A stretch of 64,000 bases of DNA from IMG/VR virus record IMGVR_UViG_3300032309_000634, positions 19,791-83,790 of that record; one strand, 5' to 3'. The notes beneath the pieces were generated by a model, which had not been told where the DNA came from, did not search any database, and was given only the letters and a program-made list of their open reading frames with translations. Position numbers and translations under genes: made by a program. Shown piece by piece: positions 1 to 6,000 of the stretch (position 1 is its first letter; every line of letters begins with the position of its first letter). This stretch comes from a virus.

Positions 1-3000
1 CTGGAACTAGGTCAGTATTTCTTCCAGCTCTTTTTGCTTGCTCTACTTGTGTAACAGACATTGTGTTTGTGATCTTACCAAGAGCTTCAAGCTGATTGGT
101 AGTCATAGTCATTGCTTCTGCTTGTTTTTGTCCTTCAATTATATTCCGTTTAATTGTTGAAGATTGAATTTTAAATACCGCAGCAAGTGAAAGTGCTGCT
201 GCGCCAGCAATTTTTAAAGGTGAATTAAATATTGACATAAACATTGGAATCAAAGATGCCACAGAAATTGCAACCATATTTTTAGAAAGAAGTTGTCCTG
301 CTGCTGAGTCAGGCTGGGATGCTGCAATACCTTGAGCAACCATAGGAAGCATCATTGCTGCCATGCCAATACCCATGGATTTTTGTGCAGTATTCATTCT
401 ATTTGCTTGACGCATATTTATGCGTTCTTCAGGAGTCGCAGTTCTTGTTACTCCCTTATCATCTGTTACAGTGTTTGATACATTGCCAAACCCATTAAGC
501 CAGCCACGGAAACCTCTGGTTTTATCTTTTCCAAAAGACTCTGTTGTTCCAGATACAGCCTTGTCAAGTTTTTCAACCTTTGGGGTAGTTTTTTCAAACT
601 TACTTCCAAGCTTATCAATTCTGTCGCCAAGTTTTTTAATTTTTGGTTTGTCAAAGAATTTATCAATAGCACGTGAGACTCTATCTTCTCCTGGTGCAAC
701 GGTTGGTGCTGTTGGCATTGGACCCCAGCCATCTCCCTTATCTCTCCATGATCCTGGATTGCCACCCCAAGGGCTTGGAGTAATATTTGAGTTTTCAAAC
801 CCAGGTATCGTATCACTAATCATTGATTTAATTAATGGCATATACTTTTGAGATTGCTTTGCTGGGATTACTGCTTCTCCTGGTGACAACATTGCTGGAA
901 CAATATCTCCCGCACCTTTTGGTCCAGGGACTGAGAATATACCGTTTGCAAATCCAGCAACTCTTTCAACAGTTATACCTTTAGGGCTAATGTCAGTTAT
1001 TACAAACTTACCGCCAAACATTCTTTCTGATTCTGGAACACCTTTTTGACTATACATATTTTTAAATAATGAATGTACTGGAATTACATCTTGGTTTTTA
1101 AAAGATGTTTTAACTGTAAATGGAATAACGTCTTTTTTAGTTATTGCTTGATCTCTTGTATTTTTTGCAAAACCACTAGCAATGGATTCTTCAGAACTCC
1201 AAGCAGATGTTCTCATATTAAATGGTTTTCCAACAAACTTACTTAATGCATCTCTTTGTTCAGCACCTTTTAGAGTTGTTAAAATTTTATAAATTTCACC
1301 AGAAATTTCAGGTGGCAGGGTTCCTAATTTTTTCTGATAATAGGAATTTCCAGACAATCCTGTTCCTCTAAAGAAAGTTCCAGACTCTTTTGTACGTAAA
1401 GATTTAGTTAAAGAATTATATTTTTTAAGACTAGTTACAGGATAATAACCATCTTTCCACAGTTTTACTAAAGCTTTGCCTAATAATTGTTTTGGTACTC
1501 CTGCTTTTAGAGCATTATCAATTGCTAAATTTGCCTCTTTGTCCTCAGAGTAAGTTCTTAGTGTTTTTATTGTTTTGTCATATTCTTCTTTTTGTTTTGC
1601 GCTTAGATCTTTAATTAAAGTATTTGACGCAAGTCTTCCAGATGGATTAAATACAGTTTTTGCTTTAGGAGATGCAATGGGTTTAGCTGTTAGTGGTATT
1701 CTACCAGCCATGTATCCTGGAACGTCACCAGAAATCATTGATTGAATTAATGGTCTATACTTTGCAGACTGTTTAGCAGGAATAACTGCTTCTCCAGGAG
1801 ATAGCATTGCAGGAACAATATCTCCTGCTCCCTTTGGACCTGGAACAGAGAATAAACCTTTATTTGCATAAATTAAATTATCTTGTCTAGATGCAGTTCC
1901 AAATTTTTCGTAATAATTTTTTTCAATTCTATAAGGTAGTGCTTTTTCTAGATATTTATCAAAATTTGTAAATGTTTCTGAACTGTTTTTCTTTGCATTT
2001 ACTTGTGCTAACAATGCCATAGCTTGAGCACGTGATTGTGGATGTTCTGCATTTCCATAGTAAACGAGAGCCTGATTCATGGCCTGAGTATCTTCAAACA
2101 AATATTCAGGGAGGTCGTCTTCTGCGTTACGCATTCGTTTTGCTGCTGGAGTTATATGACTTAAAGCTCTAGATGAATAAAACTTTGATACATCTCCAGT
2201 TTCTTTAATATAACGTTGTAATGGCATGCTTGTGCCGTCAGGTAAAGTAATCTTTTTTGCTGGTTGCGTTATTGTTGCTAATACATCTGCAGGAAGAACT
2301 TCTTTTAGGTAGGCTTCTTCTTCATCAATAAACTGTTGTTGTTCTTTATATATTTTCTTATCTTTATAAAGACTTCTTCTATTTTTGGCGCTAGGTGTTA
2401 CATTACTGCTTCTTCCTCTACCGCCTGACCCGAGAACGGAGCCAACCTCTGATGCTGTTACAGTTTTCCCTGATATTTTTCTTATGCCTCTTTCACCAAA
2501 CATCTTAGCTTTAAAAGCTTCTAGGATTTGCTCATCATTTAATCCTTTTGATTTCCAATACATTTCATTTTCAGCAATTTTGTCTTCTACTGCTTTTAAA
2601 TTTTTTGGTGTAACGGTAAACTTAATTCCGCCTAAATCAAACTCCGTGTTATCTCCTTGGAATCTTCTATTAATTCTTGATAACAAAGATCTAGAAACAC
2701 TTGATTCTCCAGCTGAAAAAATACTCCTGGCTGCCGCTTCTCTTGCGCCTGAAACTCTTATCGCAGTTGCTGATGGACCGAAAGTTGGCATACGTCCAGC
2801 CATGTATCCTGGAACTATTCCGCCCTTAGCAAAACCATTACTTTGTGCCCATTTAGCAAAACCCTCCATGAAGTCTCTATCAGATAAGGATGCACCATGT
2901 CCTTTTTGTCTTGCTCTTAATGCAATTTCATCTTCTATTTTCTTTATTGCTGCAGGAGTTAATGCTTTCTTTGGATTAGCAACTACTGATGAATGAATAC

Positions 3001-6000
3001 CATGAATTTCTCTCCAGTTGGCATCCCTAGCATCCTCTAAGCGTTTAATCATGTTTTGATAAATACCCTGCTCTTCTTTATTTAACTTAAAGCTTGCTAT
3101 TGTTGCTCTAAGTTTTGGAAGAGTGTCATCGATCTCTTGTATCATTCTTGTACGGTATTCTTCTGCAGTCATTCCCCTTGGAATATCAGCTGTTGCTTCA
3201 GCAAAGAATCTCTTTGTATTTGAGCCTTTTACTCCAAGCAAGTTTATACGTGCTTGCTCTTCAATAGATGGCATTTCTTTTGAATATGTTCTAAACCCAG
3301 AAGCGGTATCAAAGACTCCAGCATTTCCTTGATCCACCACATTCTTACCAGATACGTTTGCAATCTGCAGATCTTTATCTCCTCTTACAGTAGAAGCTAA
3401 AAGCTGCGAGAAGTAATCATCTTTAGTAAAGACACCATCTGGTTTTGCAAACTCAGGGTTGTAAGGGGCTTCAGATACAATAATTTTTCTCTTCTTTTGT
3501 GGATCAGTTGGATCAATCATTGTACGAATTGTATGCTCTGGTGCTTTTAGTGGGAAGGCTTTGTTTGTAATAGTAGACATTCTTTCTTCTGCTAAAGCAG
3601 CAGTCTCATCAACATATGGCTTAACAAATACCTTAGTTCCATCTGGCTTTTGATACAATCCGCCAATTCCTTTAACAGGAAATGAGTGCCCTGTGGTTGC
3701 TTCAAGCTGAACGCCAAAATCTGTTGGATCCATGTCAGCAAATCGACTTGCTTCAGTTCCTTTTCCAATTGACTCCATTGACAGTCTTGCTTTGCGTTGA
3801 TCTGTAACAGCTTTAATAGTTTTTGGCATGCCCAGGAATAGTGGCAGCCTTCCAGCCATATGGCCTGGTAAAGTTCCGTCAATCATCTGTCCAATAAATG
3901 GTGCGTACTTCTTTGCCATATCAGCAGGGATAACGGCTTCTCCAGGAGTTAGAAGTGCTGGGGTAGTATCTTGATTCCCCGTTCCAGGAACACTTGTTAC
4001 GCCTTTAGCAAAACGCCTTGGAGGGGTGACTCTAGCAACGCTTGGCATAAACATTCCTGGGTTTGTGCTAGCAAAACTAGACATTGCAACTTTAGCTTCT
4101 CTATACGTATTTGTTAAGGCAACAAGACTTGCTGACTCAAGGACGTATGCTGCAGATAATGCTTTGTGAGATGTTGCAAGGCTGTTAGATATTGCAATAT
4201 TTTCTAACTCTTCATTAGTTAAATATTGTGTTCCAAGAGCTGCATCTTTAGATCCATAGGCTAAGCTTTGGAAACCTTTGCGAATAAGGTTAAACATTTT
4301 CATTAAGTTAGCTAAACCATTAGCAACAAGACCAACAGTCATAAGAAGGACTGGACCAATACCAGCAACAGCTGCTATAATAATTGCTACTGCTTTTTTA
4401 ATTCCTTCAGGTGCGTTGTTAAATTTATCAAATAATTTAACAAAAAACTCAATTACTGGTGTTAAAACTTTTGCAAACAATTCACCTACTGGAGCAATAG
4501 AAGCTTTGAGTTTTTCAATAGCTGCTTGCATCTTATACATTGGTGAAGATTCTTGCGTTTTTAGTTCTCGCTGAGACAATAAAGCTAATTCTTCTGCTGA
4601 GGCAGAAGCCATTTTTAAGACTCTACTTGCTTGACTTCCTTCTTTTGTTACGTTATTTAAAAGAGCAGAGATTCTTGCAAACTGGTATTTACCAAAAACT
4701 TTTTCAATTGTTTGTGCTTTTTGCAAATCTGTCAAAGGCTGAAGAGCTTCAGCAAATGATAATACTGTATTTCTTAGGTTACCTTGATTGTCTTGAACAA
4801 TGCCCTTAAGGTTAATACCAAGTTTTGCTGCTGATTCAGATGCAGCTTTAGATGGATTAATAAGAGATGCTAGGCCAGACTTAAGTGCGTTAGCACCTTG
4901 CTCTGCGCTAATTCCACCTTCTTTCATTGCTGTCAAGAAGAAAGCTAAATCTTCTACATTGCCACCAAGTTGTTTAATAATTGGGGCAACTTTTGGAAGT
5001 GCGTTAGATAAATCTTCAAGACTTAAAACGGTTTGGTTTTCAACAGAGTTAAGGAAATCCATTGTTTTTCCAAGTTCCTCAGATCCAATAGAAAAAGCAT
5101 TTTGCAGTGCAATAGTTGTTTCTAATGCTTTATCTTGTGCCACGCCACCTAGGACTGCAAGCTTATTTGCCTGCTTTACAACTTCCTCTAATTGCTTTCC
5201 AGAATTACCAGCTGCAGCAGCATCGGCAGCCATCTTAATTGTTTCAGAAACTTTAAGCCCATACTTTGTATATTCTTTTGCAAGATCTCTTATATTTTTA
5301 AGAGCTTTATCACTTTCGCCTTCAGTAGTAAATATGTCACCATAAACTTTTCTAAATCTTATTGCCTGAGTTTCAATTTCTTTAAATGATTTAATTGCTG
5401 ATCCTGCAAACATAGCCAAGGGAATTGTAAAACCAACCATAAGCTGACGACCAGCCCATTGTGTATTTTTACCAAAGTTAAGAAGTTTTGTAGATCCATC
5501 ATCAAGTAGTTTATTAAATATTTGTTGGCGTTGAATCGCCATAGACATATTAGTTAATTGATCATTATAGTTAAGATTTTTAGGAGTAACTCGCATTGAG
5601 TTTAATGCGCCAGAAGCATCTTTACCTAATTGAACATACTGGCTTTGAAGTGCCTTTACTCTTTTTTCAACTAAACTACTAATTGTTGAAAACTCTTTAG
5701 CATAATTTTTGCCAAATGTTTTTGTTGAAGCCATGCCATATCGGTAATACTCACGAAGTGATAATTTGCCAGACTCTAAACTACGAGAAAACTGCTCTGT
5801 AGCAGTTGACATCTTGCCCATAGAGGCATTAAACATGCCTGTAGCATTAATGTTATGTAAAAGTGATTTTGAAAAATCGGCTTGGGCTAGTGATGCAGCC
5901 TTTGTACCGACAATCATGGAACGGTTAAACGCAGATATCTGCTTGTCTAGCCCACGTAGTGCGGACATAGCTTGCGTTGTGTCAATATTAATTAAAATAT

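Follow-up and report, generated by a model that had tools for sequence, protein, structure and literature searches.

In an uncultured phage, the tape measure protein (TMP) carries a row of three mutually unrelated domains, here called cassettes A, B and C, between its conserved core and its hydrophobic helices, and these domains are set apart by copies of a conserved peptide that we call the joint. The gene lies at one edge of a 64,000-nucleotide stretch of viral DNA (the window), which covers positions 19791-83790 of an 83,790 b IMG/VR virus record (IMGVR_UViG_3300032309_000634, designated G000:C1). Alignments with related TMPs indicate that such cargo domains are gained, lost, replaced and reordered among related phages, with breakpoints on the joints. 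We suggest, with somewhat better than even confidence, that the TMP delivers pre-made enzymes into the host and that the joint acts as a universal element for splicing and processing, injection and release both being steps that we infer.

An ATG at position 6019 opens a minus-strand frame of 2,006 amino acids (aa) that runs off the window edge (window 2-6019); the whole gene occupies G000:C1:14491-25809 and encodes 3,772 aa, of which the window shows the first 2,006 codons. The product is a giant TP901-type TMP, because it matches PF10145 (PhageMin_Tail) over aa 245-443 (E 2.7e-29, 102.9 bits against a cut-off of 33.2), its first 669 aa match TMP PHROGs (E 7e-90), and tail genes are its neighbours. 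A preliminary description made from the letters alone had read a TMP in the minus frame from 6019, and the open frame and these matches agree with it; the linkers of the insert also sit where it had placed them, but the protein is nearly twice as long as the portion that the window holds. From the N-terminus, the order is core, cargo row A/B/C, hydrophobic helices, a ruler of ~1,700 residues, a C-terminal copy of the joint motif, and a hub-plug tail. The hydrophobic segments are at aa 539-569, 1915-1933 and 2213-2234, and the core is 50-99% identical among relatives.

The array contains three full joints of ~55 aa (L1, L2 and L3) and one short copy of 14 aa (Ls), and a fifth, more divergent copy lies outside the window at aa 3683-3732, ~40 aa before the C-terminus. 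A joint profile scores the full copies at 85-93 bits, far above chance, and the fifth at 39 bits. L1 reads FAKGVTSVPG...PALLTPGEAVIP...LPGHMAG and Ls reads GFAKGGIVPGYMAG. The latter had been described as a short linker; it is indeed present, but is better seen as a full joint without its middle, as the head (FAKGG.VPG) runs directly into the tail (YMAGR.P) and the middle core PAMLSPGEAVIP is absent. The consensus of this short form is [FY]A.GG.VPG[YH]MAGR.P. Joints that precede another cassette end in PG[YH]MAGR.P, and cassettes start R[LMI]P; L3, the last joint of the array, ends IPGFENS and is without the PGYMAGR.P ending. AlphaFold gave the joints a predicted local distance difference test score (pLDDT) of 31-49, and to judge from these models they may be extended, or may fold only within the assembled trimer. 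Among 233 TMPs of at least 2,400 aa with a match to the joint profile, the number of copies ranged from one to five, three being commonest; the first stood at ~aa 650-700 in 194 of the 233, and a C-terminal copy was found in 218.

Comparisons of related TMPs show where the cargo changes. Its order is shuffled between the window TMP (core-L-A-Ls-B-L-C-L) and that of relative L005 (core-L-C-L-A), and the block formed by C and its joints is 73% identical between the two, compared with 50% for the core and 20-26% for the ruler. The TMP genes of L025 and L006 share 90-100% DNA identity over ~10.6 kb save for one block of ~930 nt at 40-55%; this block corresponds to aa ~1078-1385, with Ls at its left edge and the first codons of the next full joint at its right edge. 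Between the window TMP and L025, DNA identity stays at 80-95% from the first codon as far as the first half of L2 and then falls within the joint (87% at aa ~1401, 53% at ~1431), with nothing alignable from aa 1441. This places the breakpoint between the two lineages near aa 1410 (window ~1790), inside L2, so that the sequence beyond it (C, L3 and the backbone downstream) derives from a different lineage. The preliminary description had proposed exchangeable domains, and number, identity and order do all vary among the relatives; the alternative of a fixed set is not borne out.

It had further proposed the linker as a recombination junction, which fits the several breakpoints that map to joints but is insufficient alone, given the way in which L2 and L3 differ. 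These two copies share 81% of their DNA and 83% of their amino acids, with dS (synonymous divergence) of 1.7, dN (nonsynonymous divergence) of 0.13, dN/dS of 0.07 and pS (the proportion of synonymous differences) of 0.67; the synonymous sites are saturated, two thirds of them differing. Over 150 random pairs from the TMP family, median identity was 55% for the joint, 57% for the core, 58% for the C-terminal tail and 22% for the ruler. Because dN/dS between L2 and L3 is so low and conservation across the family matches that of the core, the peptide itself must be selected; it is under strong purifying selection and is more than a recombination scar. We also considered the joints as recent DNA duplications or as substrates for internal recombination, which the 81% DNA identity and the synonymous saturation rule out.

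The breakpoints on joints, and the conservation of joints across lineages, which would favour homologous exchange, could also be explained if the joints were mere patches of homology left by and promoting recombination, functionless as peptides, and if the array were a side effect of mosaic evolution. We regard this as improbable. It sits poorly with the retention of amino-acid identity between L2 and L3 in the face of their synonymous divergence, with joint conservation equal to that of the core, with the C-terminal copy in nearly all of the TMPs surveyed, where no cassette follows it, and with the occurrence of the first joint in TMPs of Streptomyces phages too. The joint belongs to a motif widespread in TMPs, whose existence the preliminary description had noted: it matches both the C-terminal copy in its own protein and two copies in gp16, the TMP of mycobacteriophage Douge (PDB 8ZDO sequence; aa 964-1013 and 1412-1461, profile E 2.4e-8), and by sequence it is homologous to both the motif beside the C-terminal plug and these internal copies. 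The two Douge copies bracket ~400 residues, and motif-bracketed inserts thus exist in TMPs of cultured phages.

The structure of cassette A was predicted with confidence (pLDDT 80, predicted template modelling score 0.75), and its model has the bilobal kinase fold. Kinase-like proteins made up all 50 of the top 50 Foldseek matches in the PDB and 48 of the top 50 chains in a structure search independent of Foldseek. The best matches in a viral structure library (E ~1e-5) were large phage proteins with several domains each, carrying annotations as ADP-ribosyltransferase, PI3/4-kinase or portal fusions. Across 13 cassette A sequences of 44-87% identity, the motifs GxGG, FVK(800)P, AxAE(811), RGD(881)KD(883)LxxxN(888) and D(896)xG are invariant, in turn the candidate Gly-rich loop, beta3 Lys, alphaC Glu, catalytic D..N and metal-binding DxG (in the window, K800 is encoded at 3620-3622, E811 at 3587-3589, D881/D883/N888 at 3356-3379, and D896 at 3332-3334). 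The model shows a kinase fold of CotH/PI4K/HipA-like type, and the invariant motifs suggest that the catalytic signature is intact, as would be expected of an atypical kinase that is active. The PI3_PI4_kinase profile PF00454 did not match it in a profile search of the phage's own genome carried to E 10 or in Pfam scans, so that cassette A has the kinase fold but is not a sequence member of PF00454; scans of Pfam, PHROG and NCBIfam and sequence and profile searches of the PDB likewise returned nothing for it. In relative P0035, aa 723-1024 form a cassette unrelated in sequence; to the eye, its stretch NFDAHHQN looks like the catalytic loop of HipA/PI3K-type kinases, and the cassette may be a second family of cargo kinases.

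Cassette C, by its sequence motifs and a structural comparison, is probably an ADP-ribosyltransferase (ART), an identification in which we have good though not full confidence. It contains, in the R-S-E order of C3/iota/VIP2-type transferases, FFR(1551)G, TS(1605)xW(1607)S and E(1663)xE(1665) (window 1367-1369 for R1551, 1199-1207 for S1605/W1607, and 1025-1033 for E1663/E1665). Eight sequences, the most distant at 26% identity, all keep the R, the W and both E; where the canonical middle motif is S-T-S, these have S-x-W-[ST]. With a poor model of the cassette, Foldseek returned transferases of the C3, iota, CDTa, Vis, C2-I or ExoS type as ~30 of its top 50 matches (E at least 0.28), and a wide structural search with the model of the B-L2-C-L3 segment gave nothing beyond generic matches of helical type, which fell on the N-terminal subdomain of C. 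A search for homologues of cassette C that stand alone or in mid-length proteins found none. Within TMPs, the cassette lies at different places in different phages (positions 739, 1305, 1371, 1407, 1440 and 3592). Short repeated joints of other kinds stand on either side of C, or of a C-like domain, in some other TMPs, namely GG[LM][IV]GGLVK.GK.GYGN in P0158 (aa ~1270-1560) and FAKGGY.GAGDPVTVA.YGIKKL in P0068 (aa ~180-520), which suggests that several types of joint serve the same role.

Cassette B represents a conserved family. Invariant in its alignment are S1287 and H1288 (window 2156-2161), R1297, N1315 (2075-2077) and H1326 (2042-2044), with 27 residues from H1288 to N1315 and 11 from N1315 to H1326. 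This S-H..R..N..H pattern is compatible with a nuclease of the His-Me finger (HNH) type, which has a beta-beta-alpha metal finger, but a low-confidence AlphaFold2 model places helices at the S-H/N/H region, and neither fold nor profile searches lend the idea support. The wide structural search that used the B-L2-C-L3 model, a poor prediction (pLDDT 54), gave nothing for cassette B.

The cassettes belong to a large family of arrays. A full HMMER search that took the insert as query brought up 952 representative proteins (E<1e-3), and nearly all of the best 150 listed matches are TMPs of 2.4-4.4 thousand residues, in which A lies anywhere from ~660 to 2174. In the 233 TMPs surveyed, the 225 segments between joints form 46 clusters, mostly without any Pfam match. 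Cassettes A, B and C fall into three separate similarity clusters and are therefore mutually unrelated, as the preliminary description had stated. Searches with tblastn for A, C and a divergent C-like domain in 50,697 cultured phage records found no match, and by this measure the cassettes appear so far to be confined to uncultured phages. In relative P0008, a 195-aa cassette between joints (aa 1072-1266) has a sub-threshold match to the cytidylyltransferase-like family PF01467 (E 0.0012, 19.5 bits, cut-off 21) and includes a stretch, H.P..IAH, that recalls the HxGH motif of nucleotidyltransferases.

We propose that the TMP would leave the tail before the DNA, its hydrophobic helices inserting in the membrane and forming a channel. 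The cargo, being N-terminal of these helices, would follow the channel-forming part into the cytoplasm, where ATP- and NAD-dependent enzymes could modify host proteins ahead of phage gene expression, in the service of take-over or counter-defence. The joint would provide a flexible, conserved junction at which any cargo could be spliced in with the ruler undisturbed. By analogy with T5, it is probably a processing site as well. The T5 TMP, pb2, has a hydrophobic stretch and an enzymatic domain and is cut after R1127 during tail assembly, both pieces being retained in the tail (Linares et al., 2023; PMC10038345). Its sequence at the cut, marked here by a slash, is FVPR/AEGGMMYPG...MGEHGTEVV.P, and the part after the cut bears a loose likeness to the joint's head (FAKGG.VPG) and to PGEAVIP. 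The enzyme of pb2 differs from the cargo described here in being a single, wall-acting metallopeptidase, C-terminal of the hydrophobic stretch.

Delivery into the host is favoured because the cargo lies N-terminal of the helices, as the enzyme does in gp96 of phage P23-45 (see below), because the cofactors are cytoplasmic, and because wall-acting cassettes lie at the opposite end of the TMP. Relative to the first hydrophobic helix past ~residue 700, A is N-terminal in 122 of 122 cases, B in 14 of 14 and C in 7 of 8 (143/144 in total). A second search for relatives added 256 proteins, some of which bear CHAP, LysM, CW_7, PG_binding_1 or HAD-phosphatase domains. Cassettes with CHAP and LysM, bracketed by the same joint motif, are found in the C-terminal third of the TMP in P0042 (aa 2628-2883) and P0158 (aa ~2876-3131), at the end that would leave the tail first.

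Such wall-acting domains also lend something to a different view, in which the inserted domains act outside the cytoplasm or in tail mechanics (envelope crossing, channel anchoring or tail length), like the peptidoglycan-hydrolase motifs of other TMPs, and are not effectors that modify the host. The embedded TMP domains known so far, such as the metallopeptidase of T5 pb2, act on the wall, and insert length is weakly correlated with TMP length (r 0.43). Still, A has a kinase fold with an ATP-site signature and C the signature of an NAD transferase, and both cofactors are cytoplasmic; moreover, the relatives keep their wall-acting cassettes in the C-terminal third, and A, B and C lie on the N-terminal side of the hydrophobic helices. 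We therefore judge this view unlikely. Yet another role for the enzymes would be late in the producing cell, where, as part of the free TMP, they would modify proteins of phage or host ahead of lysis and end up in the virion only incidentally. TMPs are made in quantity late in infection, and the sequence is compatible with such a role, but fusion to a protein that is sequestered by chaperones and then buried in the tail has no clear benefit over free genes. That the cassettes are embedded in the ruler, at a conserved place with respect to the hydrophobic helices, points instead to a role linked to ejection, for which there are precedents in proteins delivered alongside DNA, and we give a role in the producing cell little credence.

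Several observations weigh against delivery of enzymes through the joint-bounded array. The preliminary description had expected enzyme folds, and this holds for the kinase fold of A and probably for C as an ART, but B is without a recognisable fold, having no match in Pfam, PHROG, NCBIfam or the PDB by sequence or profile. For C, the ART families PF03496 (ADPrib_exo_Tox) and PF18760 (ART-PolyVal) gave no match in own-genome and Pfam scans, sequence and profile searches of the PDB and searches of PHROG and NCBIfam found nothing, hhalign against T4 Alt returned a probability of 0.5%, and the model is the same poor one, at pLDDT 54, as for B. Family-level scans of both halves of the TMP detected no peptidase family, no fold-level search of the remainder having been made. 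The joint profile does not match T5 pb2 even with filters off, so that the cleavage analogy rests on a short pattern picked post hoc and is a lead, not evidence. Three folded domains of 28-38 kDa, each in three copies, must find room in a tail lumen ~4 nm wide or be unfolded there. In P0161, cassette C is on the C-terminal side of the hydrophobic helices. Because A, B and C served as the queries that retrieved the relatives, the cassette frequencies are biased. Lastly, the nearest relative, P0154, is identical to the window TMP through L1 and Ls, and within A is only ~72% identical over aa ~743-1000 (window ~3020-3790); here the exchange breakpoints are inside the domain and not at joints. This tract rules out that every exchange falls exactly at joints, and by its sequence it is a tract of conversion between kinase alleles, which may point to diversifying exchange of the enzyme itself.

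A more far-reaching form of the delivery reading is also conceivable, although we hold it only tentatively and think it rather less likely than its negation. The TMP of a large uncultured group of long-tailed phages would then be a magazine that can be reloaded by recombination, with the joint as a dedicated signal for loading and processing; dozens of mostly undescribed enzyme families would be stored in the tail lumen, cut free and injected before the DNA, as a phage counterpart of polymorphic toxins and of effector delivery by the type VI secretion system (T6SS).

If delivery is correct, siphophage tails bring variable, ready-made enzymes that act before phage transcription, a route to host take-over or counter-defence that has been documented so far only for head-packaged proteins and for one fusion of a TMP with an RNA polymerase. 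Most cassettes match no known family, so the arrays offer new enzyme families whose setting already hints at what they do. In the joints there is a natural splice point that the protein tolerates and that might be used to load foreign proteins into phage tails in laboratory systems of phage and bacterium, and embedded cargo bears on how tail length is read from TMP length. The features of the gene that lie in the window are collected in Table 1.

Table 1. Parts of the tape measure gene within the window. Positions are those of the window; aa, residues of the TMP.
Feature	Position	Strand	Basis
TMP gene, first 2,006 codons	2..6019	-	Open reading frame translation, PF10145, TMP PHROGs
TP901-type core, aa 1-668, including hydrophobic helix aa 539-569	4016..6019	-	Pfam/PHROG
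Joint L1, aa 669-723	3851..4015	-	Joint profile, 85.5 bits
Cassette A, aa 724-1061, atypical protein-kinase-like domain	2837..3850	-	
Short joint Ls, aa 1062-1075	2795..2836	-	Repeat family D3
Cassette B, aa 1076-1383, conserved family	1871..2794	-	Homologue alignment
Joint L2, aa 1384-1439	1703..1870	-	Joint profile, 88.7 bits
Cassette C, aa 1440-1689, helical subdomain and probable R-S-E ADP-ribosyltransferase core	953..1702	-	
Joint L3, aa 1690-1744, final joint of the array	788..952	-	Joint profile, 92.8 bits
Low-complexity stretch past the array, then start of the hydrophobic region (helix aa 1915-1933, window 221-277)	2..787	-	

The products encoded downstream of the TMP gene include one of 1,441 aa with a match to a minor-tail PHROG (E 1.9e-58) and a second with a match to a tail-protein PHROG. 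Upstream are two chaperone-sized paralogues and a protein with an Ig domain. The paralogues (window 6050-6403, minus strand, 117 aa, and 6423-7115, minus strand, 230 aa) share a match to phrog_10504 that covers their N-terminal ~100 residues, and the 230-aa protein continues into a further C-terminal domain, phrog_10474; they look like a tail-chaperone pair of the G/GT type that is split into two genes. The third protein (window 7187-7825, minus strand, 212 aa) matches phrog_2175, 'protein with Ig domain', and is, judged by its position, probably the tail tube protein or its decoration.

No description of such arrays came up in full-text literature searches that paired tape measures with ADP-ribosyltransferase, with polyvalent protein, or with effector domains and kinase. 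Among known systems, the polyvalent proteins of phages and conjugative elements are giant polypeptides in which several conflict-type enzyme domains, ARTs and protein kinases among them, follow one another; it has been proposed that they reach the recipient cell along with the DNA and that recombination of a cassette-like kind makes them vary (Iyer, Burroughs, Anand, de Souza and Aravind, 2017; PMC5512222). In the window TMP, likewise, A, B and C are unrelated domains in one 3,772-aa protein, with a kinase fold in A and an ART-like C, and the best viral structural matches of A are large multi-domain phage proteins of this kind. Unlike the array described here, however, the phage examples of that study are tied to head/MuF-type and other carriers, tape measure proteins being mentioned 0 times in it; it describes no conserved 55-aa joint; it credits release to embedded metallopeptidases, which family scans did not find in the window TMP; and its kinase family is without the C-terminal subdomain, in contrast to the CotH/PI4K/HipA-like fold of A.

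The direct precedent for a TMP as an enzyme carrier is gp96 of the Thermus phage P23-45, a TMP of 5,002 aa with an active virion RNA polymerase in its N-terminal part; 5 min into infection, it can be found on the phage DNA (Chaban et al., 2024; PMC10770324). The polymerase stands ahead of the membrane and metallopeptidase regions and acts in the cytoplasm, on the injected DNA. It is, however, a single fixed enzyme for the phage's own transcription, in a protein with no array, no repeated joints and no reported shuffling other than presence or absence among relatives. The T4 protein Alt (NC_000866 annotation) is an ART that the virion brings in already made, together with the DNA, and whose target is the host RNA polymerase; a role of this kind is proposed for C, but Alt is a separate protein packaged in the head. 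In Douge, whose TMP carries the joint-like motifs, only the last 42 residues of the protein have been modelled, docked in the baseplate hub (PDB 8ZDO/8ZDQ; PMC13033339). No shuffling has been described for this phage.

In polymorphic toxin systems, the carrier is conserved and the enzymatic tips vary, recombination exchanging them at conserved junction motifs; these systems are secreted bacterial toxins that come with immunity genes and usually have one C-terminal tip. The TMP arrays differ from these in that no immunity genes are evident and in that several cassettes lie within a structural protein of the virion. What they share with them is a conserved carrier whose variable domains are exchanged by recombination at junction motifs.

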